A DNA stretch of 64,000 nt from Escherichia coli (GTDB lineage Bacteria; Pseudomonadota; Gammaproteobacteria; Enterobacterales; Enterobacteriaceae), in the NCBI RefSeq assembly GCF_001677475.2, contig NZ_CP015229.1; one strand, given 5' to 3'. The notes beneath the pieces were generated by a model. The model was not told the origin of the DNA. It worked only from the letters and a program-made list of their open reading frames with translations, and did no database searches. The translations under genes and the position numbers were made by a program. Below are positions 5,289 through 57,901 of this stretch, piece by piece; positions within the stretch are counted from its first letter, which is position 1; the number at the start of each line of letters is the position of its first letter.

Positions 5289-5322
5289 GTGCCGGATGCG
5301 GCGTGAATGCCTTATCCGGCCA
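5289..5322. repeat. REP (repetitive extragenic palindrome) element
   Basis: GCCGGATGCGGCGTGAATGCCTTATCCGGC imperfect palindrome typical of E. coli REP. Confidence 0.75.
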
Positions 5323-5516: not shown

Positions 5517-6710
5517 GTGTTTCAAAAAGTTGACGCCTACGCTGGCGACCCGATTCTTACGCTTATGGAGCGTTTTAAAGAAGACCCTCGCAGCGACAAA
5601 GTGAATTTAAGTATCGGTCTGTACTACAACGAAGACGGAATTATTCCACAACTGAAAGCCGTGGCGGAGGCGGAAGCGCGCCTGAATGCGCAGCCTCATG
5701 GCGCTTCGCTTTATTTACCGATGGAAGGGCTTAACAGCTATCGCCATGCCATTGCGCCGCTACTGTTTGGTGCGGACCATCCGGTACTGCAACAACAGCG
5801 CGTAGCAACCATTCAAACCCTTGGCGGCTCAGGGGCATTGAAAGTGGGCGCAGATTTCCTGAAACGCTACTTCCCGGAATCAGGCGTCTGGGTCAGCGAT
5901 CCTACCTGGGAAAACCACGTAGCAATATTCGCCGGGGCTGGATTCGAAGTAAGTACTTACCCCTGGTATGACGAAGCGACTAACGGCGTGCGCTTTAATG
6001 ACCTGTTGGCGACGCTGAAAACATTACCTGCCCGCAGTATTGTGTTGCTGCACCCATGTTGCCACAACCCAACGGGGGCCGATCTCACTAATGATCAGTG
6101 GGATGCGGTGATTGAAATTCTCAAAGCCCGCGAGCTTATCCCATTCCTTGATATTGCCTATCAAGGATTTGGTGCCGGTATGGAAGAGGATGCCTACGCC
6201 ATTCGCGCCATTGCCAGCGCTGGATTACCCGCTCTGGTGAGCAATTCGTTCTCGAAAATTTTCTCCCTTTACGGCGAGCGCGTCGGCGGACTTTCTGTTA
6301 TGTGTGAAGATGCCGAAGCCGCTGGCCGCGTACTGGGGCAATTGAAAGCAACAGTTCGCCGCAACTACTCCAGCCCGCCGAATTTTGGTGCGCAGGTGGT
6401 GGCTGCGGTGCTGAATGACGAGGCATTGAAAGCCAACTGGCTGGCGGAAGTAGAAGAGATGCGTACTCGCATTCTGGCGATGCGTCAGGAACTGGTGAAG
6501 GTATTGAGCACAGAGATACCAGAACGCAATTTCGATTATCTGCTTAATCAGCGCGGTATGTTCAGTTATACCGGTTTAAGTGCCGCTCAGGTTGACCGAC
6601 TACGTGAAGAATTTGGTGTCTATCTCATCGCCAGCGGTCGCATGTGTGTCGCCGGGTTAAATACGGCAAATGTACAACGTGTGGCAAAGGCGTTTGCTGC
6701 GGTGATGTAA
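5517..6710 (+). CDS. tyrB: aromatic amino acid aminotransferase, GTG start
   Basis: 397 aa from [13 protein letters not shown] with GGAGAA RBS 8 bp upstream; class I aminotransferase PLP-lysine region [14 protein letters not shown]. Confidence 0.9.
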
Positions 6711-24697: not shown

Positions 24698-26656
24698 TTA
24701 CGATGGCATCGCGATAGCCTGCTTCTCTTCAAGCAGCTTCTCGACTACGCCAGGATCGGCAAGCGTCGAGGTATCGCCCAGGTTGCTGGTATCGCCCGCC
24801 GCAATTTTGCGCAGAATACGGCGCATAATTTTGCCGGAGCGGGTTTTAGGCAGGGAGTCGGTCCAGTGCAGCACGTCTGGCGTCGCCAGCGGGCCAATCT
24901 CTTTACGCACCCAGTTGCGGACTTCTGCGTACAGTTCTGGTGACGGTTCCTCCCCGTGATTAAGCGTGACGTAGGCGTAGATCGCCTGACCTTTAATATT
25001 GTGCGGAATACCTACTACGGCGGCTTCGGCAATCTTCGGATGCGCCACCAGCGCCGACTCAATCTCCGCCGTCCCCAGACGGTGACCGGAGACGTTCAGC
25101 ACGTCATCCACGCGCCCGGTTATCCAGTAATAGCCATCTTCATCGCGACGCGCGCCGTCGCCGCTGAAATACATATTTTTGAAGGTGGAGAAGTAGGTCT
25201 GTTCAAAACGTTCGTGATCGCCAAACAGCGTACGCGCCTGACCCGGCCAGGAGTCGGTGATCACCAGACTGCCTTCGGTGGCCCCTTCCAGCGGGTTACC
25301 TTCGTTATCGACTAACGCCGGTTGCACGCCGAAGAACGGACGTGTTGCCGAACCGGCTTTCAGCTCGGTAGCGCCAGGCAGCGGGGTGATCATGAAACCG
25401 CCAGTTTCGGTCTGCCACCAGGTATCGACCACCGGGCATTTCTCGTTGCCGATTTTTTTCCAGTACCACTCCCACGCTTCCGGGTTAATTGGCTCGCCCA
25501 CGGAACCGAGAATGCGCAGTGACGAACGATCGGTGCCTTCAATCGCTTTATCGCCTTCCGCCATCAGCGCACGAATCGCCGTGGGCGCGGTATAGAGAAT
25601 ATTGACCTGATGCTTATCCACCACCTGTGCCATACGGGCAGGCGTCGGCCAGTTCGGTACGCCTTCGAACATCAGCGTGGTCGCGCCGCAGGCCAGCGGG
25701 CCGTACAGCAAATAACTGTGTCCGGTAACCCAGCCCACATCGGCGGTGCACCAGTAGATATCACCCGGATGATAATCAAAGACATATTTAAAGGTCAGCG
25801 CCGCGTACACCAGATAACCACCGGTAGTGTGCAGCACGCCTTTCGGCTTCCCGGTAGAACCGGAGGTGTAGAGAATAAACAGCGGATCTTCGGCGTTCAT
25901 CTCTTCCGCCTGGTGCTGATCGCTGGCTTGCTCAACCAGGTCGTGCCACCACAGGTCGCGCCCTTCCTGCCAGTCGATTTTTCCGCCAGTACGCTTCAGT
26001 ACCACCACATGCTCTACGCTGGTGACGTTCGGGTTTTTCAGCGCGTCATCAACGTTTTTCTTCAGCGGAATACTACGCCCGGCACGCACGCCTTCGTCGG
26101 AAGTGATCACCAGTCGTGAGTTAGAATCGATAATGCGTCCGGCAACGGCTTCCGGCGAGAAGCCGCCGAAAATTACCGAATGCACCGCGCCAATGCGGGC
26201 GCAGGCCAGCATCGCAACCGCGGCCTCCGGCACCATCGGCATATAAATCGCCACCACATCGCCTTTTTTAATGCCCAGCTCGAGCAGGGTATTAGCGAAG
26301 CGGCAGACGTCGCGGTGCAGCTCTTTATAGCTGATATGTTTGCTCTGGCTGGCGTCGTCGCCTTCCCAGATGATGGCGGTACGATCGCCGTTTTCTTGCA
26401 GATGGCGGTCAAGGCAGTTTGCCGCTAGATTCAGCGTGCCGTCCTCGTACCATTTAATGGACACATTACCTGGGGCAAAGGAGGTGTTTTTCACCTTCTG
26501 GTAAGGTTTGATCCAGTCAAGAATTTTTCCCTGTTCGCCCCAGAAGGTATCAGGTGCGTTAATAGATTGTTGATACATCGCCTCGTACTGCTGAGGGTTT
26601 ATCAGGCAACGGTCTGCGATGTTGGCAGGAATGGTGTGTTTGTGAATTTGACTCAT
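24698..26656 (-). CDS. acs: acetyl-CoA synthetase
   Basis: 652 aa; AMP-binding motif [11 protein letters not shown]; regulatory lysine region SGKIMRR. Confidence 0.97.
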
Positions 26657-26907
26657 GCTTTTGTTCTCCTTGTAGGATGTTAATAATATGTGGCATAAGA
26701 GTTAAATGTAGGGGTATTGGCAGTTTTGTTTAGTATTTGGGCGACAGATCACGCAAAAGTAGAATTGTGCAAATAAACGGCAGGGTAATTTTTGAAGGTC
26801 AGCAACAAAAGTTGATTAATTCTTTGAGGAACATGTAGTTATGCATGCTGTTGAAAAAGAGGAAGATACTGACTAACTCTAAAGTGGTATTTTACATGCA
26901 CTTACAA

Positions 26908-26921
26908 TTGATTAAAGACAA
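26908..26921. promoter_or_regulatory. putative FNR site in the nrf promoter
   Basis: TTGATTAAAGACAA resembles TTGAT-N4-ATCAA; about 130 bp upstream of nrfA start; assignment tentative. Confidence 0.35.
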
Positions 26922-27006
26922 CATTCACAGTGTGGTTATTTGTTACACATAGGGGCGAGCAATGTCATGACAGTGTAGGTGCGGTTACTGTCGTGAAAAA
27001 CAATAA

Positions 27007-28485
<1,479 letters not shown>

Positions 28486-28524
28486 CCCCCGTTCCGCCTC
28501 GCAAGGGGCGGAAAACACAATGGA

Positions 28525-29097
28525 GTGAATATGAGCGTATTACGTTCGTTATTAACTGCCGGGGTGCTGGCGTCGGGCCTGTTGTGGAGCCTGAACGGAA
28601 TTACCGCTACCCCTGCGGTGCAGGCATCGGAAGATCGCTACGAAGTTACCCAGCAGCGTAACCCGGATGCCGCCTGTCTGGACTGTCATAAGCCAGACAC
28701 CGAAGGTATGCATGGCAAACATGCTTCCGTTATCAACCCGAATAACAAACTGCCGGTTACCTGCACCAACTGTCACGGCCAGCCGTCACCGCAACACCGC
28801 GAAGGGGTGAAAGATGTGATGCGCTTTAACGAGCCGATGTACAACGTTGGTGAGCAGAACAGTGTTTGTATGTCCTGCCATCTGCCGGAACAGTTGCAAA
28901 AAGCGTTCTGGCCGCACGATGTCCACGTGACCAAAGTGGCGTGCGCCAGTTGCCATTCCCTGCATCCACAGCAAGATACGATGCAGACGTTAAGTGACAA
29001 AGGACGGATTAAGATTTGCGTCGATTGCCACAGCGATCAGCGCACCAATCCGAACTTTAACCCGGCGTCTGTTCCGTTGCTTAAGGAGCAGCCATGA
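28525..29097 (+). CDS. nrfB: pentahaem cytochrome c, electron donor to NrfA
   Basis: 190 aa (or 188 from second Met); signal peptide; five CxxCH motifs. Confidence 0.95.
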
Positions 29098-29765
29098 CCT
29101 GGTCTCGTCGCCAGTTTCTCACCGGCGTCGGCGTGCTGGCAGCCGTCAGCGGCACCGCAGGACGCGTGGTGGCGAAAACATTGAATATCAATGGGGTGCG
29201 TTACGGCATGGTGCATGACGAGTCGTTATGTATCGGCTGTACCGCCTGTATGGATGCTTGTCGGGAAGTGAACAAGGTGCCGGAAGGCGTCTCGCGCCTG
29301 ACGATTATTCGTAGCGAGCCGCAGGGCGAATTTCCTGATGTGAAATATCGCTTCTTCCGCAAGTCTTGCCAGCACTGCGATCATGCGCCGTGCGTTGACG
29401 TCTGCCCAACCGGTGCGTCTTTTCGCGATGCTGCCAGTGGGATTGTCGATGTTAATCCGGATCTCTGCGTCGGTTGTCAGTACTGTATCGCCGCCTGTCC
29501 GTACCGCGTGCGCTTTATCCATCCGGTCACGAAGACGGCGGACAAATGCGATTTCTGCCGTAAGACCAATTTGCAGGCCGGTAAACTGCCCGCGTGCGTT
29601 GAAGCTTGCCCGACGAAAGCACTGACGTTTGGCAATCTGGACGATCCCAACAGTGAGATTTCGCAACTGCTGCGCCAGAAGCCCACTTACCGCTACAAGC
29701 TGGCGCTGGGAACCAAACCGAAGCTGTACCGCGTACCGTTTAAATATGGGGAGGTGAGCCAATGA
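29094..29765 (+). CDS. nrfC: 4Fe-4S ferredoxin-type subunit, Tat signal
   Basis: 223 aa; RRQFLTG twin-arginine motif; four CxxCxxCxxxCP cluster motifs. Confidence 0.95.
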
Positions 29766-30718
29766 CGCAGACTTCCGCATTTCATTTTGAATCGCTGGTG
29801 TGGGACTGGCCGATTGCCATCTACCTGTTTTTGATTGGTATTTCTGCCGGTCTGGTGACGCTGGCCGTGCTGTTACGTCGCTTCTACCCGCAGGCGGGCG
29901 GTGCAGACAGTACGTTGCTGCGCACCACGCTGATTGTCGGGCCTGGCGCGGTGATCCTTGGTCTGTTGATCCTCGTCTTCCACCTGACGAGACCGTGGAC
30001 CTTCTGGAAGCTGATGTTCCACTACAGTTTTACCTCGGTGATGTCGATGGGGGTGATGCTGTTTCAGCTCTACATGGTGGTGCTGGTGCTGTGGCTGGCG
30101 AAAATCTTTGAACATGATTTGCTTGCCCTGCAACAACGCTGGTTGCCGAAGCTGGGGATCGTGCAAAAGGTTCTGAGCCTGCTGACGCCCGTTCATCGCG
30201 GACTGGAAACGCTGATGCTGGTGTTGGCGGTGCTGCTGGGGGCTTATACCGGCTTTCTGCTGTCGGCGCTGAAATCGTATCCGTTCCTCAATAACCCGAT
30301 CCTGCCGGTGCTGTTCCTCTTCTCCGGCATCTCGTCCGGTGCGGCGGTAGCGCTGATCGCCATGGCGATACGCCAACGCAAAAATCCGCATTCCACGGAA
30401 GCGCACTTTGTTCACCGTATGGAAATCCCCGTGGTATGGGGTGAAATCTTCCTGCTGGTGGCGTTTTTTGTCGGCCTGGCGCTGGGCGATGACGGTAAAG
30501 TGCGTGCACTGGTGGCGGCGTTGGGCGGCGGTTTCTGGACGTGGTGGTTCTGGCTTGGTGTCGCCGGGCTGGGGCTGATTGTGCCAATGTTGCTCAAACC
30601 GTGGGTCAATCGCAGTTCCGGCATTCCTGCCGTGCTGGCGGCGTGTGGGGCCAGTCTGGTCGGCGTGTTGATGCTGCGTTTTTTCATTCTCTACGCCGGA
30701 CAGTTGACGGTGGCGTAA
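29762..30718 (+). CDS. nrfD: NrfD/PsrC-family integral membrane quinol dehydrogenase subunit
   Basis: 318 aa, about eight TM helices; start overlaps nrfC stop. Confidence 0.95.
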   Translation: MTQTSAFHFESLVWDWPIAIYLFLIGISAGLVTLAVLLRRFYPQAGGADSTLLRTTLIVGPGAVILGLLILVFHLTRPWTFWKLMFHYSFTSVMSMGVMLFQLYMVVLVLWLAKIFEHDLLALQQRWLPKLGIVQKVLSLLTPVHRGLETLMLVLAVLLGAYTGFLLSALKSYPFLNNPILPVLFLFSGISSGAAVALIAMAIRQRKNPHSTEAHFVHRMEIPVVWGEIFLLVAFFVGLALGDDGKVRALVAALGGGFWTWWFWLGVAGLGLIVPMLLKPWVNRSSGIPAVLAACGASLVGVLMLRFFILYAGQLTVA

Positions 30719-30797
30719 GCCAGAAAAGAGGTGGTTTCTGGACGTATTCCTTCCTGAAGTCGGTTTTCTGGCGTTGTTGTTAAGTCTCGGGGTCAAC

Positions 30798-32456
30798 GTG
30801 TTGACCCCGTTGACGGCCTTTGCGGGAGTGTGGTTGCGCTGGCCTGCCATGATGCGGCTCACTTGCATCGGCATTCTGGCGCAGTTCGCGCTCCTGCTGC
30901 TCGCCTTTGGCGTACTGACGTATTGTTTTCTCATCAGCGATTTCTCGGTCATTTATGTCGCCCAACATAGCTATAGCCTGCTGTCGTGGGAACTCAAACT
31001 GGCGGCGGTGTGGGGCGGTCATGAAGGTTCGCTGCTGCTTTGGGTGCTGCTGCTTTCCGCCTGGAGCGCGCTGTTTGCCTGGCATTATCGGCAGCAAACC
31101 GATCCGCTATTTCCGCTGACGCTAGCCGTTTTATCTCTCATGCTCGCCGCGCTGCTACTGTTTGTGGTGCTGTGGTCCGATCCCTTTGTACGGATATTTC
31201 CGCCAGCAATCGAAGGCCGCGATCTCAATCCGATGCTGCAACATCCCGGTCTTATCTTCCATCCGCCGCTGCTCTATCTCGGCTATGGCGGTTTGATGGT
31301 GGCGGCGAGTGTGGCGCTGGCGAGTCTACTGCGCGGCGAGTTTGATGCGGCCAGCGCCCGAATTTGCTGGCGCTGGGCGTTACCTGGCTGGAGTGCATTA
31401 ACTGCGGGGATCATCCTCGGTTCCTGGTGGGCCTATTGCGAACTCGGCTGGGGCGGCTGGTGGTTCTGGGATCCGGTGGAAAACGCCTCTTTATTACCCT
31501 GGCTTTCTGCCACTGCGCTGCTGCACAGTTTGTCCCTGACACGCCAGCGGGGGATTTTCTGCCACTGGTCGCTGTTACTGGCGATAGTTACTCTGATGCT
31601 GTCGCTGCTGGGCACGTTGATTGTCCGTTCCGGCATTCTGGTTTCGGTCCATGCGTTCGCGCTGGATAACGTCCGCGCCGTGCCGTTGTTCAGCCTGTTT
31701 GCACTGATTAGCCTTGCGTCTTTGGCTCTGTATGGCTGGCGAGCGCGGGACGGTGGCCCGGCGGTGCGTTTTTCGGGGTTATCGCGGGAAATGTTAATCC
31801 TCGCTACGCTGTTGCTGTTTTGCGCAGTGCTACTGATCGTGCTGGTGGGAACGCTTTATCCGATGATTTACGGCCTGCTGGGCTGGGGACGCCTCTCCGT
31901 TGGCGCGCCGTATTTTAACCGCGCGACGTTACCGTTTGGTCTGTTGATGCTGGTGGTGATTGTGCTGGCGACGTTTGTCTCTGGCAAACGCGCGCAGCTT
32001 CCGGCGCTGGTAGCTCATGCGGGCGTGCTGTTATTTGCCGCCGGGATCGTGGTCTCCAGCGTCAGCCGTCAGGAGATCAGCCTGAATTTACAGCCGGGTC
32101 AGCAGGTGACGCTGGCAGGATACACCTTCCGTTTTGAGCGCCTCGATCTACAAGCCAAAGGTAATTACACCAGCGAAAAAGCGATAGTGGCGTTATTTGA
32201 CCATCAGCAACGCATTGGTGAACTGACACCGGAGCGGCGTTTTTACGAAGCACGTCGTCAGCAAATGATGGAGCCGTCAATTCGCTGGAACGGCATCCAT
32301 GACTGGTATGCGGTCATGGGTGAAAAAACCGGAGCGGATCGTTACGCTTTTCGTTTGTATGTACAAAGCGGTGTGCGCTGGATCTGGGGGGGAGGATTGT
32401 TGATGATTGCGGGCGCATTGTTAAGCGGATGGCGGGGGAGGAAGCGCGATGAATAA
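30798..32456 (+). CDS. nrfE: haem lyase NrfE (CcmF paralogue); start uncertain (GTG 30798 or TTG 30774)
   Basis: about 552 aa polytopic protein with CcmF-like WGGWWFWD motif. Confidence 0.9.
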   Translation: MLTPLTAFAGVWLRWPAMMRLTCIGILAQFALLLLAFGVLTYCFLISDFSVIYVAQHSYSLLSWELKLAAVWGGHEGSLLLWVLLLSAWSALFAWHYRQQTDPLFPLTLAVLSLMLAALLLFVVLWSDPFVRIFPPAIEGRDLNPMLQHPGLIFHPPLLYLGYGGLMVAASVALASLLRGEFDAASARICWRWALPGWSALTAGIILGSWWAYCELGWGGWWFWDPVENASLLPWLSATALLHSLSLTRQRGIFCHWSLLLAIVTLMLSLLGTLIVRSGILVSVHAFALDNVRAVPLFSLFALISLASLALYGWRARDGGPAVRFSGLSREMLILATLLLFCAVLLIVLVGTLYPMIYGLLGWGRLSVGAPYFNRATLPFGLLMLVVIVLATFVSGKRAQLPALVAHAGVLLFAAGIVVSSVSRQEISLNLQPGQQVTLAGYTFRFERLDLQAKGNYTSEKAIVALFDHQQRIGELTPERRFYEARRQQMMEPSIRWNGIHDWYAVMGEKTGADRYAFRLYVQSGVRWIWGGGLLMIAGALLSGWRGRKRDE

Positions 32457-35944: not shown

Positions 35945-38092
35945 TTACGCCAGTGCCGCTTCGCGCAGGCGAGTTTTCAACTTGTTGTACTCGTCAATCA
36001 CGTACTGCTCGGCGGCGCGCTGATCGGCGATCGGCTCGACGCGCACGGCGCAGTATTTGTATTCCGGCGTTTTCGTAATCGGGCTTAAGTTTTCGGTAAC
36101 CAGCTCGTTACAGGCACCAATCCACCACTGGTAGGTCATATAAATCGCCCCTTTGTTCGGACGATCGCTGACCTGCGCACGGGTGATAATTTTGCCTTTA
36201 CGCGAGTGCACCCAAACCAATGCCTCATCTTCAATACCCAGACGTTTGGCGTCTTCGGTATTGATTTGTGCGTAGCCAGGTTCATCAGCCAGCGCCGCCA
36301 GTGCCGCACAGTTACCGGTCATCGAACGGCAAGAGTAGTGACCAACTTCACGCACCGTTGACAGTACCATCGGATACTCGTCGGTGAGTTTGTCGATTGG
36401 CGCTACCCAGTCGCAGGTGAAGAACTGCGCCAGACCGTTCGGGGTATCAAACTTCTCTTTAAACAGATAAGAAGTCCCCTGATCGGCATCTGAAGTATCG
36501 CGGCAAGGCCACTGAATGAAGCCCAGTTCGCCCATTTTCTCGTAAGTCGCACCGTAGAAATCCGGGCACAGATGACGCAACTCATCCCAGATCTCCTGGG
36601 TGTTGTTGTAGTGCATCGGATAACCCATACGGGTGGCGATTTCACTGATGATTTGCCAGTCCGTTTTCAGATCCCATTTCGGTTCAACCGCTTTGAAGAA
36701 ACGCTGGAAGCCACGGTCAGCCGCAGTAAACACGCCTTCATGCTCGCCCCACGACGTTGACGGTAAAATAACATCCGCCGCCGACGCGGTTTTGGTCATA
36801 AAGATGTCCTGAACGATGACCAGTTCCAGATCTTCAAAGGCTTTACGTACTGCCGACAGCTCCGCGTCAGTTTGAAGCGGATCTTCGCCCATAATGTACG
36901 CGGCACGCACTTCACCATGCGCTGCGCGGTGCGGCAGCTCGCTGATGCGATAACCGGTATGAGCAGGCAGGCTTTCCACGCCCCAGGCTTTGGCGAATTT
37001 CTCGCGGTTAGCCGGATCTTTCACGTACTGGTATCCCGGATACGTATCCGGCAGCGCGCCCATATCGCAGGCACCCTGCACGTTGTTCTGACCACGAACC
37101 GGGTTTACACCCGCATGCGGCTTACCGAGGTTACCGGTCAGCATCGCGAGGCTGGTCAGAGAACGCACGGTTTCCACGCCCTGGTAGAACTGGGTTACAC
37201 CCATGCCCCACAGGATGGCGGCGCTTTTCGCCTGGGCATACATCCGTGCCGCCTGACGAATCTCACTGGCGCTGACGCCGGTGATATCTTCAACCGACTC
37301 CGGCGTGTAGCCTTCAACGATTTTACGATACTCTTCAAAGCCTTCTGTACGGGAAGCGACGAAAGCTTTGTCGTACAGGTTTTCTTCAATAATGACATGA
37401 CCCATCGCATTCAACAGCGCGATGTTCGAGCCGTTTTTCAGTGCAATGTGCATGTCAGCAATGCGCGCGGTTTCAATTTTGCGCGGATCGCAGACGATAA
37501 TTTTCGCCCCGTTACGTTTAGCGTTAATTACGTGGTTCGCCACGATTGGGTGGGAATCCGCCGGGTTGTACCCGAAAACGAACACTAAATCGGTATTATC
37601 AATTTCGTTAATAGCATTGCTCATTGCGCCATTACCGACCGATTGGTGCAGACCTGCAACCGATGGGCCGTGTCAGACACGAGCGCAGCAGTCAACGTTA
37701 TTGGTACCAATAACGGCGCGCGCAAATTTTTGCATTACATAGTTGGTTTCGTTACCCGTACCACGCGAGGAGCCGGTCGTCTGGATGGCATCCGGACCGT
37801 ACTTCTCTTTGATGGCGCTCAGGCGCTCGGCAACGTAATTCAGTGCCTCATCCCAGGAAACAGGTTCGAGTTTGCCGCCACGCTGGCGACGGATCATGGG
37901 GGTTTTCAGGCGCGGGGTCAGGATCTGGGTATCGTTAATGAAGTCCCAGCCATAATAACCCTTCAGACACAGGGTACCCTGGTTGGTTTTCCCCTGCGCT
38001 GCCTCCGCCCGGACGATTTTGCCGTTATCGACGACCAGGTTGATTTTGCAACCTGATGCGCAATAGGGGCAAACCGTGACGACTTTTTTCAT
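35945..38092 (-). CDS. fdhF: formate dehydrogenase H (selenoprotein; UGA at codon 140 decoded as selenocysteine)
   Basis: two same-frame ORFs (139 aa + 559 aa) separated only by TGA at 37673..37675; N-terminal CPYCASGCKINLVV 4Fe-4S motif; total 715 codons. Confidence 0.95.
37625..37672 (-). ncRNA. SECIS element (mRNA stem-loop directing SelB-dependent Sec insertion)
   Basis: sequence immediately 3-prime of the in-frame UGA (CACGGCCCAUCGGUUGCAGGUCUGCACCAAUCGGUCGG) can fold as a hairpin. Confidence 0.8.
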
Positions 38093-48071: not shown

Positions 48072-49207
48072 CAGAACACCCTTTTCCCCTGACGCCAGAC
48101 GTGGTCGATGTGAATGTGATTGCCCTTGCGATGCGCCAGCACCAGGTCGGCGCGTTTACCCTCGCCAATCACCCCGCGATCCTGAAGATTCAGCGCCTGG
48201 GCCGGGTTTTTGGTCACCAGCTTCACCGCCTGCGGCAGCGTAAAGCGGTTGCTCTGGTCATCGGCGACGCGGAACGCCGCATCCAGCAGGCTGGCGGGGT
48301 AGTAGTCGGAAGAGAGGATATCCAGCAGGCCAAGCTGTGCCAGCTCACTTGCCGCCACGTTACCGGAGTGCGAACCGCCGCGCACGATATTCGGCGCGCC
48401 CATCAGCACGTTCATACCATGCTTGCGTGAGGCTTCTGCGGCTTCGAACGTGGTAGGAAATTCGGCGATCACGCTACCAAGCTGGTGGGATTCGGCAACG
48501 TGGGCGTGCGTGGCGTCATCGTGGCTGGCGAGCGCAATGTGTCGCGCGCGGCACATTGCGGCGATGGTTTCGCGATTTGGCTGCGACCAGCGTGCGGCGA
48601 GCGCCAATTGCTCTTCTTCGTACTGCTGCATCTGCGCATCGGTGAGGGAATATTTGCCCTGATAATATTCGCGATACTTCTCGCGATTGGCGAACTGGCG
48701 CTGGCCTGGCGAGTGGTCCATCAGCGATACCAGCGTCACCGGTTCGCGCTGCACCAGTTTTTCAAACAGCGGCAGCGTGGTGTGATGCGGCAGTTCGCAG
48801 CGCAGGTGCAGGCGGTGCTCGGCGCGGTTGACGCCGCGTTTCTGCGTCTCTTCGATGGCGTTGATCATCTTCTCCAGATTCTCCAGCCGATCGCCGCCGT
48901 CGCGCACATCACCAATCGCCACGGCGTCCAGTACGGTGGTGATGCCGCTTGCCACCATCAGCGCGTCGTGGCTGCTCATCGCCGAATGGGCGGGCCAGTC
49001 GACTTTCGGGCGCGGGGTGAAGAATTTATCGAGGTTGTCGGTATGCAGCTCAATCAGGCCGGGTAGTAGCCAGCCACCTTCGCCGTCCATCGCTTCCGGC
49101 TGGCGGCTCTGGCTTTCGGCAAAGGCGCGAATTTCGCCATCCTGTACTTCCAGTGAACCGTGCACCACTTCGTTTTCCAGCACCAGTTTGACGTTATTGA
49201 TAATCAT
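48071..49207 (-). CDS. phnM: amidohydrolase-family RPnTP diphosphatase
   Basis: 378 aa amidohydrolase fold. Confidence 0.95.
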
Positions 49208-49884
49208 GAAGAGGCTCCCATCGGGTGCAGGCGGTCGGCGACGTCATTGCGTACGGCTTCGTCATGGAAGATACCGACGATGGCTGCGCCACGGGCTTTA
49301 GCTTCGAGAATCAGTTCCACCACCGCGGCGCTGTTTTTGGCGTCCAGCGAGGCGGTAGGTTCGTCGAGCAGCAGAATGGGGTAGTCGACGATAAAGCCAC
49401 GGGCGATGTTGACGCGCTGCTGTTCGCCGCCGGAGAAGGTCGATGGTGCAAGGTGCCACAGGCGTTCAGGCACGTTCAGGCGCGTCAGTAATCGGGCGGC
49501 TTTAGCGGCGCAGGCTTCACGCGGTACGCCGGTATCGAGCAGAGGCTGCATCACCACTTCCAGTGCCGAAATACGCGGGATGACGCGCAGAAACTGGCTC
49601 ACCCAGCCGATGGTGGTTTTGCGGATCTCCACCACTTTGCGCGCTGGCGCGGTGACCAGGTCTACCCATTCCTCACCGTGTTTGATCTGGATTTGCCCTT
49701 CGTCGGGCAGATAGTTGGCGTACAGCGAGCGCAGCAGGGTTGATTTTCCGCTGCCGGAGTGGCCGTGAAGCACCACGCATTCGCCTGCGTTGACGGTGAG
49801 CGAGGCACGTTGTAAGACGTGCAGGCGCACGCCGTTTTGCTGGTGCAGGATGAAGGTTTTACTGACGTTTTGTACGTTAATCAT
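49204..49884 (-). CDS. phnL: C-P lyase system ABC-type ATPase
   Basis: 226 aa from [11 protein letters not shown]; Walker [10 protein letters not shown]. Confidence 0.95.
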
Positions 49885-49904
49885 TTTTCGCCTCGTGGTT
49901 CGGG

Positions 49905-49990
49905 TGTCGGATGTGACGCTGACGCGTCTTATCCGACCTACGGGGAGCGCATTTGTCGGCCGGATAAGGCGTTTACGCCGTATCCGGTAC
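49905..49990. repeat. REP element cluster between phnL and phnK
   Basis: paired palindromes TGTCGGATGTGACGCTGACGCGTCTTATCCGACC and GTCGGCCGGATAAGGCGTTTACGCCGTATCCGG. Confidence 0.75.
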
Positions 49991-49994
49991 TGGC

Positions 49995-50753
49995 TCAATT
50001 CTGCAAAACCGATGACACCAGCAACTGGGTGTACGGGTGGTGCGGGTCGTCGAGCACGCGGTCGGTTAACCCACTCTCCACCACTTGCCCCTGTTTCATC
50101 ACCAGCAAACGGTCCGCCAGCAGGCGGGCGACGCCCAGATCGTGGGTGACAATCACCACCGCCAGATTCAGCTCCACCACCAGACCGCGCAGCAGATCGA
50201 GCAGGCGCGCCTGTACCGATACATCCAGCCCGCCGGTCGGTTCATCCATAAACACCAGCTTCGGATGCGTCACCAGGTTACGGGCAATCTGCAAACGTTG
50301 CTGCATGCCGCCGGAAAAGGTGGTCGGCAGGTCGTCGATCCGGTTGGCGGGAATCTCCACCTCTTCCAGCCACTTCTGCGCGGTGGCGCGGATGTCGCCG
50401 TAATGACGCGCCCCGGTTGCCATCAAGCGTTCGCCGATGTTGCCGCCCGCCGATACCTGACGGCGCAGGCCGTCGAGCGGATGCTGATGCACCACGCCCC
50501 ATTCGGTGCGCAGCAGGCGACGGCGGTCGGCCTCGCTCATGCCATAGAGGGAACGGTTTTCATAGTGAATCTCCCCCTGCTGCGGCGTCAGGCGCGCGGA
50601 GATTGATTTCAGCAGCGTGGTCTTCCCGGAGCCGGATTCCCCGACAATGCCTAGCACTTCCCCCGGCCATAAATCAAAAGAGACATCGCTAAAGCCTTTG
50701 CCCGGCGCGTAAAGGTGGGTCAGGTTATTGATCGAAAGTAACGGTTGATTCAT
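49995..50753 (-). CDS. phnK: C-P lyase system ABC-type ATPase
   Basis: 252 aa from [11 protein letters not shown]; Walker [10 protein letters not shown]. Confidence 0.95.
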
Positions 50754-54431: not shown

Positions 54432-55211
54432 TCAGATAAAGTGCTTACGCAACCGTTGAGAGAGGAAATCCAGCAGGCTGACCGTGACGATAATCAGCAC
54501 CATCAGGGCGCAGGTTTGCTGGAACTGGAAACCGCGAATCGCTTCCCACAGCGTGACGCCAATTCCGCCTGCGCCGACCATGCCTACGACGGTCGCCGAA
54601 CGGACGTTGGATTCGAAGCGATAGAGAGAATAGGAAATCAGCAGCGGCATCACTTGCGGCAGCACGCCGTAGAGGATCTCTTCGAGCTTGTTGGCACCAG
54701 TGGCGCGAATACCTTCCACCGGGCCGGGTTCAATTGCTTCTACCGCTTCGGAAAGCAGCTTGGAGAGCACGCCGGTGGTGTGGATAAACAGCGCCAGCAC
54801 GCCAGCGAACGGGCCAAGGCCGACGGCGACCACGAACAGCATGGCGAAGACCATTTCGTTAATGGCGCGGCAGGCGTCCATCAGGCGGCGTACGGGCTGG
54901 TAAACCCACCACGGCACCAGGTTTTCGGCGCTCATCAGGCCAAAGGGGATGGAGAGAACCACCGCCAGCGCGGTGCCCCAGACGGCGATTTGCAGCGTGA
55001 CGGCCATTTCGGTGAGGTAATCCTGCCACTGGCTGAAATCGGGCGGGAAGAAGTCGGCGGCGAACGTCGCCATGTTGCCGCCGTCTTTAATCAGCGTGAG
55101 CGGGGCCATTTCCGCGCCCTGCCACGAGACGACCAGCACGGCGAGAACAATGGCCCAGCTCAGAAGCGAGAACCAGCTGCGCTTGGGTGGGGCGATGGTG
55201 ATGGTTTGCAT
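54432..55211 (-). CDS. phnE: phosphonate ABC transporter permease (apparently intact)
   Basis: 259-aa uninterrupted ORF with ABC permease TM pattern. Confidence 0.9.
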
Positions 55212-55233
55212 ATATTGCTCCGTTTAATGTTTT

Positions 55234-55325
55234 CTCCCTCTCCCTGTGGGAGAGGGCCGGGGTGAGGGCATCAGCGTGCGCATTTCCCCCTCACCCTAAC
55301 CCTCTCCCTCAAGGGAGAGGGGACC
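55234..55325. repeat. GC-rich intergenic palindromic repeat cluster between phnE and phnD
   Basis: nested inverted repeats CTCTCCCTGTGGGAGAG, GGGTGAGGG...CCCTCACCC, CCCTCTCCCTCAAGGGAGAGGGG. Confidence 0.6.
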
Positions 55326-55336
55326 GATCGAGCACA

Positions 55337-57742: not shown

Positions 57743-57807
57743 GATGGTGACCTCAGTTAAGAGAAGCCAGTTAAGTGTAGTTCGAAATTTATACAGATGA
57801 GAGGGAA

Positions 57808-57883
57808 GCCTGATAAGACGCGGTCAGCGTCGCATCAGGCTGTCGGCATCGTTGCCGGATGCGGCGCGAGCGCCTTATCCGGC
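57808..57883. repeat. BIME (two REP elements) between yjdN and yjdM
   Basis: GCCTGATAAGACGCGGTCAGCGTCGCATCAGGC and GCCGGATGCGGCGCGAGCGCCTTATCCGGC. Confidence 0.8.
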
Positions 57884-57901
57884 TTACCGATCACAATACA
57901 A

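Follow-up and report, generated by a model that had tools for sequence, protein, structure and literature searches.

The phn operon of Escherichia coli packs most of its genes end to end, and one junction stands out: what fills the gap between phnK and phnL, and does it set the expression of the genes on either side? We examined this in a window of 64,000 nucleotides (the whole stretch of DNA analysed, from contig NZ_CP015229.1). An earlier note on this DNA had described an intra-operon gap of about 110 bp holding two REP palindromes, in an operon most of whose other junctions overlap. Mapping K-12 genes onto the window bore out this description. The operon lies on the minus strand, the gap runs exactly from 49885 to 49994 (110 nt) between the phnK stop (TGA, 49997..49995) and the phnL start (ATG, 49884..49882), and two REPs are found in it. 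Seven of the 12 other phn junctions overlap by 1-14 nt (G/H, H/I, I/J, J/K, L/M, M/N and N/O); of the rest, F/G abuts, O/P leaves a 1-nt gap, and C/D, D/E and E/F are separated by 24, 125 and 20 nt. K/L is the only long junction of phnG-P, and the other structured element inside the operon lies in the phnD-phnE gap.

Table 1 Features at the phnK-phnL junction of the window
Feature	Position	Strand	Description
phnK coding sequence	49995..50753	-	252 aa; end-to-end alignment with K-12 phnK, 94.2% identity
phnK stop TGA	49995-49997	-	gene annotated as PhnK in E. coli matches
Spacer from phnK stop to first hairpin stem	49988..49994	-	7 nt, mRNA GCCAGUA
REP-B, Y-type	49955..49990	-	mRNA sense, GTACCGGATACGGCGTAAACGCCTTATCCGGCCGAC; stem 49960-49987
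Tail-to-tail linker	49942..49954	.	13 nt, GGGGAGCGCATTT on + strand
REP-A, Z2-type	49906..49941	+	GTCGGATGTGACGCTGACGCGTCTTATCCGACCTAC; inverted relative to mRNA; stem 49906-49937
Spacer with phnL ribosome-binding site	49885..49905	-	21 nt; GAGG 49891-49894, 6 nt before ATG
Gap without 49906-49994			phnK TGA would directly adjoin CGAACCACGAGGCGAAAAATG
Possible Rho loading region	49785..49919	-	C-rich, G-poor mRNA stretch; C/G up to 2.08
phnL coding sequence	49204..49884	-	226 aa; ATG 49882-49884

A Y and a Z2 REP unit lie tail to tail in the gap

A repeat finder placed two imperfect, mutually inverted palindromes in the gap, with arms at 49906-49919 / 49924-49937 and 49960-49972 / 49975-49987 that are 86% and 92% complementary. 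Folding of the transcribed strand gave RNA hairpins of -20.3 kcal/mol (z -5.6) for REP-A and -18.3 kcal/mol (z -4.1) for REP-B, and of -44.2 kcal/mol (z -5.0) for the entire gap. Using patterns derived from each palindrome together with an ungapped scan of the window, we located relatives at 5291, 24628, 35143, 57804 and 57854, against a chance expectation of 0-0.02 in shuffled sequence. A 200-nt query spanning the gap found similar places at a median of at least 27 per E. coli genome. To assign types we compared both units with Y and Z2 consensus sequences: REP-B represents the Y type, with 4 mismatches over 34 positions, and REP-A the Z2 type, with 6 over 36. Other copies in the window match these consensus sequences at 1-3 mismatches, the Y consensus fitting the copies at 5291 and 57854 and the Z2 consensus the 24628 copy with 1 mismatch.

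Both units lie outside coding sequence, form imperfect palindromes of ~20-40 nt that give stable stem-loops, belong to a multicopy family and carry the GTAG/CTAC tetranucleotide end. A further hallmark of REPs, a cognate RAYT (REP-associated tyrosine transposase) elsewhere in the genome, would not be expected among the genes of a 64-kb window. The CTAC tail of REP-A is at 49938-49941; that of REP-B, which is CTAC in K-12 and in 6 of 10 strains, reads CGAC in the window. The gap element is a small mosaic REP element (BIME) made of one Y and one Z2 unit tail to tail. It is a canonical pair, already known and the same as in K-12, whose gap is equally long and differs at 5 of 110 positions, and as such it changes nothing in the understanding of REPs or of C-P lyase. 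K-12 has 355 annotated REPs (PMC12306157). Its RefSeq annotation holds no repeat features anywhere, not even at malE-malF, so their absence at this junction is uninformative.

The Rfam model of naRNA4 (RF02564) scored the gap at 33.7-37.2 bits, below the gathering threshold of 59.5 bits, and found true matches in the window at 57807-57884 (85.5 bits) and 24589-24660 (73.8 bits). Other Rfam matches above threshold were sraL (17197-17337), STnc630 (63552-63717), SECIS_2 (37626-37680) and, at 24589-24660, a naRNA4-like REP pair. REP325, the source of naRNA4, resembles the phnK-phnL pair in placing Y and Z2 units between two co-transcribed genes, but its units stand head to head and score above the naRNA4 threshold, whereas those at phnK-phnL stand tail to tail and score below it. 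Located in the yjdM-yjdN operon beside phnC, REP325 attenuates its downstream gene, partly via Rho, and stabilises its upstream gene (10.64898/2026.03.23.713779). In the window its orthologue is the yjdN-yjdM gap at 57743-57901, which has 159 nt and one head-to-head Y/Z2 pair; the K-12 gap has 657 nt.

The alternating orientation of Y and Z2 across a short linker is also the make-up of BIME-2, which reportedly binds DNA gyrase, a result said to go back to Espeli and Boccard in 1997. Taken at face value, this composition could make the pair a gyrase or nucleoid-protein site that relieves supercoiling in a long, strongly induced operon. We consider such a DNA-level role very unlikely: BIME-2 forms tandem arrays whereas the phnK-phnL element is a single unit, the BoxC allele described below has no known gyrase link, and REP325 showed neither a chromosome-compaction role nor REP-REP contacts (10.64898/2026.03.23.713779).

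Transcription and translation signals around the pair

A consensus scan of 49885-49994 found no terminator-like site, and neither hairpin is followed by a U-tract, the sequences in these places being CCGACAAAUGCG and ACACCCGAACC. The same scan of the gap found no internal promoter. Lacking both U-tract and promoter, the pair is neither an intrinsic terminator nor a restart point. The transcript beyond the hairpins is C-rich: 78-nt windows starting at 49919-49863 reach a C/G ratio of 2.08, the 99.5th percentile across the phn operon, in a stretch that covers the phnL start and the spacer ahead of it. Judged by composition, this stretch is compatible with a rut-like Rho loading site.

One open reading frame does cross the gap. 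It was called mechanically at 49204..49998, begins at a TTG overlapping the phnK stop (TTGA, 49996-49998) and remains open into phnL, in K-12 as in the window; read literally, phnL would start at this TTG and gain 38 N-terminal residues encoded by the REPs. We rejected such an extension as next to impossible. A TGA closes the frame in the BoxC allele, a conserved Shine-Dalgarno sequence lies 6 nt before the ATG, alignments with PhnL homologues of 80 species begin at residue 1-2, and the NCBI PGAP annotation gives phnL 681 nt and 226 aa in all strains fetched (8/8). A run of 38 stop-free codons is in any case unremarkable in GC-rich sequence, and the open frame is apparently a matter of chance.

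Two structured alleles share the junction in E. coli

The REP pair occupies the junction in 4,840 of 5,426 complete E. coli genomes (~90%). In a further 546, a pair of BoxC/triplex motifs is found instead, within an element of 176 nt. All but one of the 5,387 genomes with the phnK-phnL locus (5,386) carry one or other allele, and none of the E. coli genomes sampled had an empty junction. The BoxC allele consists of one type A and one type B motif in mutually inverted orientation and fits the published BoxC/PIT/TMECO consensus, CCCTCNCCCN3-6GGGNGAGGGN3GGGNGAGGG (PMC4666352). This family is unrelated in sequence to REP, and its RNA at the junction forms a single long hairpin (-95 kcal/mol) as opposed to two short ones. 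BoxC/PIT motifs are reported to mark variable loci and to have no promoter or terminator activity (PMC4666352). Rfam microRNA matches on BoxC loci were discarded as spurious.

The same family occupies the phnD-phnE junction of the window (gap 55212-55336, minus strand) as an inverted BoxC/triplex pair at 55236-55268 (+) and 55288-55321 (-), which folds as RNA at -72.8 kcal/mol; in K-12 this gap holds two REPs. The phnD-phnE junction is polymorphic in E. coli, with a BoxC-type element in 368 genomes (the full pair or a form ~65 nt shorter) and apparently the REP version in most of the remaining ones. Beside it, the phnE gene of the window (54432-55211) does not have the inactivating 8-bp duplication of K-12 phnE and is apparently intact, at 259 aa. 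The annotated start of K-12 phnE1 lies in a REP (L001 7444-8282), and its true start is likely ATGCAAACC, after GGAG.

Among 10 divergent strains with the REP allele, the gap shows a mean difference of 2.5%, compared with 12.6-13.8% at flanking third codon positions, and 9 of its 110 columns vary against 65 of 195 at those positions (Fisher p = 3e-7). The spacer ahead of phnL is invariant across these strains, and the BoxC allele keeps its 18 ATG-proximal nucleotides unchanged (CGAACCACGAGGCGAAAA). The 13-nt linker has one variable column. Only the stop-proximal spacer, with 3 of 7 columns variable, evolves fast. Within the stems, 21 of 23 base pairs never vary, one alternates between A-U and G-U and another is disrupted in one strain only; no covariation was seen in the stems of the 10 strains, which is uninformative since so many pairs are invariant. 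This conservation may reflect local function or, equally, homogenisation among REP copies.

In the locus extracts of two strains, the BoxC and REP pairs replace one another with identical boundaries (6286-6461 vs 6286-6395, respectively). The flanks are free of substitutions for 2,240 nt towards phnL and for 460 nt towards phnK, against ~70 substitutions elsewhere in 12.7 kb, and because they are clean against this background the exchange is recent and precise. Sequence likeness also extends across the two families. AAATGCGCTCCCC, in the REP linker at 49942-49954, resembles CAATGCGCGCACCGCTCCCC in a BoxC flank (L002 gap), and AATGTGCAGGCGTTGAT resembles AAATGCGCACGCTGATG when 55269-55287 of the window is set beside L001 8229-8336. 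These similarities hint at one mosaic element of which REP and BoxC units may both be modules.

The window does not come from K-12. Around the gap (701 bases, 49600-50300) identity to K-12-type genomes is 94.4% and the best match is the soil isolate VCSW7 at 99.1%, and a 12-kb stretch (20000-32000) reaches at most 97.5% identity to any of the 5,426 complete E. coli genomes. By these identities, the source genome is a divergent Escherichia lineage.

Repeats recur at the junction in other lineages

A scan for PhnL in species-representative genomes yielded 80 loci, and ~15 of 79 carry a structured repeat between phnK and phnL. REPs of different families, each of its lineage's own type, occupy the junction in Escherichia, Citrobacter, Enterobacter, Pluralibacter, Kluyvera, Cedecea and Pseudomonas. 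A single REP is present in Enterobacter cloacae, Enterobacteriaceae bacterium RIT691 and Kluyvera, two stand tail to tail in Citrobacter werkmanii and Pluralibacter, and three are found in Enterobacter asburiae, where the linker of the REP pair resembles the 13-nt linker of the window. The Cedecea junction carries a REP, and three Pseudomonas loci have Pseudomonas-type REPs with GTAGG...CCTAC ends. BoxC-like triplex elements, which hold the junction in 10% of E. coli, also occupy it in Devosiaceae, as inverted pairs at three loci (Pelagibacterium, Devosia; CCCCTCCCC..GGGGAGGGG-TTA-GGGGTGGGG). In Leclercia, one Enterobacter and one Citrobacter the junction is an empty 7-9 nt, with the stop beside the ribosome-binding site; because such close relatives manage with an empty junction, the pathway does not need the element. 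At the neighbouring J/K, L/M and M/N junctions the loci scanned held no structured repeats, a terminator-like hairpin being the one exception.

A record labelled Pseudocitrobacter faecalis DSM 27453 carries, in its phnK-phnL gap (1203-1500 of the extract), an expanded BoxC array of 298 nt in which three additional units of ~62 nt stand in tandem. Its phn DNA is 92% identical to that of E. coli and its PhnL protein 98%, and the label may merit a check.

Across these genomes, occupancy of the junction is recurrent and lineage-specific. The pattern fits selection and tolerance alike, since K/L alone among the junctions of that stretch is non-overlapping. The pair may have landed as a passenger in the one insertion-tolerant junction of phnG-P, with no meaningful effect on expression and with its conservation due to concerted evolution among REPs. 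We regard this as possible but rather unlikely. It would suit the empty junctions of close relatives, a copy number between 0 and 3 in Enterobacter, Citrobacter and others, the lineage-specific REP types, the overlapping and repeat-free J/K, L/M and M/N junctions, and the acceptance by the E. coli site of an unrelated BoxC element from a family reported to lack promoter and terminator activity (PMC4666352). Against it stand the lack of any empty junction among 5,386 E. coli genomes, the conservation of the linker and spacer outside the REPs, the strong structure of both alleles, and the biased expression of REP-separated tandem gene pairs genome-wide (10.64898/2026.03.23.713779).

The opposite extreme would be that the phnK-phnL boundary is a convergently selected operon break point, not just a tolerant insertion site. 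Unrelated repeats in separate lineages, a junction never empty in E. coli and the precise exchange of alleles on an otherwise identical haplotype all point that way, although we think convergent selection unlikely. Were it to hold, selection would have favoured a structured element that uncouples the core-complex genes phnG-K from the accessory set phnL-P, and REP and BoxC units might then be interchangeable modules of one mosaic-element class.

A putative internal boundary of the phn transcript

We prefer, with about an even chance of its being right, the reading in which the two hairpins form an internal mRNA boundary, with a modest dosage step down from phnC-K to phnL-P and with phnL translation uncoupled from that of phnK; the harmless passenger is less probable. 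Support for a boundary comes from the stability of the hairpins, the conservation of the gap in E. coli and the C/G ratio downstream, and from the strong structure of both E. coli alleles, BoxC being even more stable. RNA polymerase would mostly read through the pair, as expected both from the missing U-tract and from the need for phnL-P during growth on phosphonate. The untranslated, structured gap and the C-rich stretch after it might permit a degree of Rho-dependent attenuation. Once the transcript had been cleaved or terminated further downstream, 3'-to-5' exonucleases would be stopped at the hairpins, and its phnC-K part would outlast phnL-P. Ribosomes finishing phnK would unwind the first stem, as it begins 7 nt past the stop, and phnL would be translated from its own ribosome-binding site and not by coupling. 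The net result would be a modest drop in dosage from phnK to phnL. Such a stabiliser or partial-terminator role is the textbook one for REPs; it is plausible here and fits what could be tested in sequence.

Established systems offer close parallels. At malE-malF and hisJ-hisQ, REP hairpins lie within a polycistronic operon directly past a coding sequence, as they do at phnK-phnL (PMC5927463, PMC12306157). The malE-malF structure stabilises the upstream mRNA segment: its REPs bar 3'-to-5' exonucleases and the upstream segment accumulates (PMC5927463). The upstream segment at malE-malF is one binding-protein gene, compared with eleven genes at phnK-phnL, and the phnD-phnE element, which follows a binding-protein gene, is the closer positional analogue. 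REP hairpins more generally act as exonuclease barriers that mark the processed 3' ends of Rho-terminated transcripts (PMC6061677). Among 146 tandem gene pairs separated by REPs, the ratio of upstream to downstream expression is raised, with wide scatter, and REP effects differ widely with context (10.64898/2026.03.23.713779).

Published expression data constrain the size of any step. RNA-seq of K-12 after 2 and 4 h of phosphorus starvation gave a single phnC-P transcript, with expression decreasing along the operon (PMC3734233); because phnC-P was assembled as one transcript, any termination at the REPs is at most partial. Samples with weak expression gave assemblies broken at K/L, with phnG-K in one and phnL-P in another (PMC3734233), and these breaks could be an artefact of discarded multi-mapping reads over the repeats. 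The supplements of that study (Li 2013) hold transcript assemblies only, with no per-gene values (PMC3734233), and the low-phosphate phn fold changes of Choudhary 2020 are noisy and do not reach significance (PMC7657598). Why PhnK and PhnL should need unequal dosage is not obvious, because both bind the core complex as dimers (PMC9947105). Among the papers covered by our literature search, none joined phnK or phnL with REPs, and the RepRanger supplements make no mention of phn.

The closeness of the first stem to the phnK stop raises a further possibility, that the effect is mainly translational. The hairpin would then stall ribosomes at the stop, mRNA cleavage and tmRNA rescue would lower PhnK, and phnL would be uncoupled. 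As relayed in PMC12306157, citing Liang, Rudd and Deutscher 2015, a REP lying <16 nt past the stop codon of a gene reduces translation of that gene (example nrdAB), and the phnK stem lies within this distance, at 7 nt. In every REP-bearing relative measured the first REP likewise begins 4-12 nt past the stop, and phnL has its own conserved Shine-Dalgarno sequence. Closeness to stop codons is, however, common for REPs generally, we found no PhnK tagging or protein data, and phnK-phnL differs from that class of REPs in that a downstream gene of the operon must still be expressed. We therefore consider a chiefly translational role quite improbable, and favour the mRNA boundary.

Discussion

Novelty in this analysis is mild and confined to two points, the repeated filling of the phnK-phnL junction and the recent exchange between REP and BoxC pairs. 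Should the element indeed reduce phnL-P expression below that of phnC-K, it would add another example of REPs that adjust relative gene dosage inside an operon. The junction offers three natural alleles, namely the REP pair, the BoxC pair and the empty form, in an operon of environmental interest, since phn degrades phosphonates and glyphosate and frees methane from methylphosphonate.
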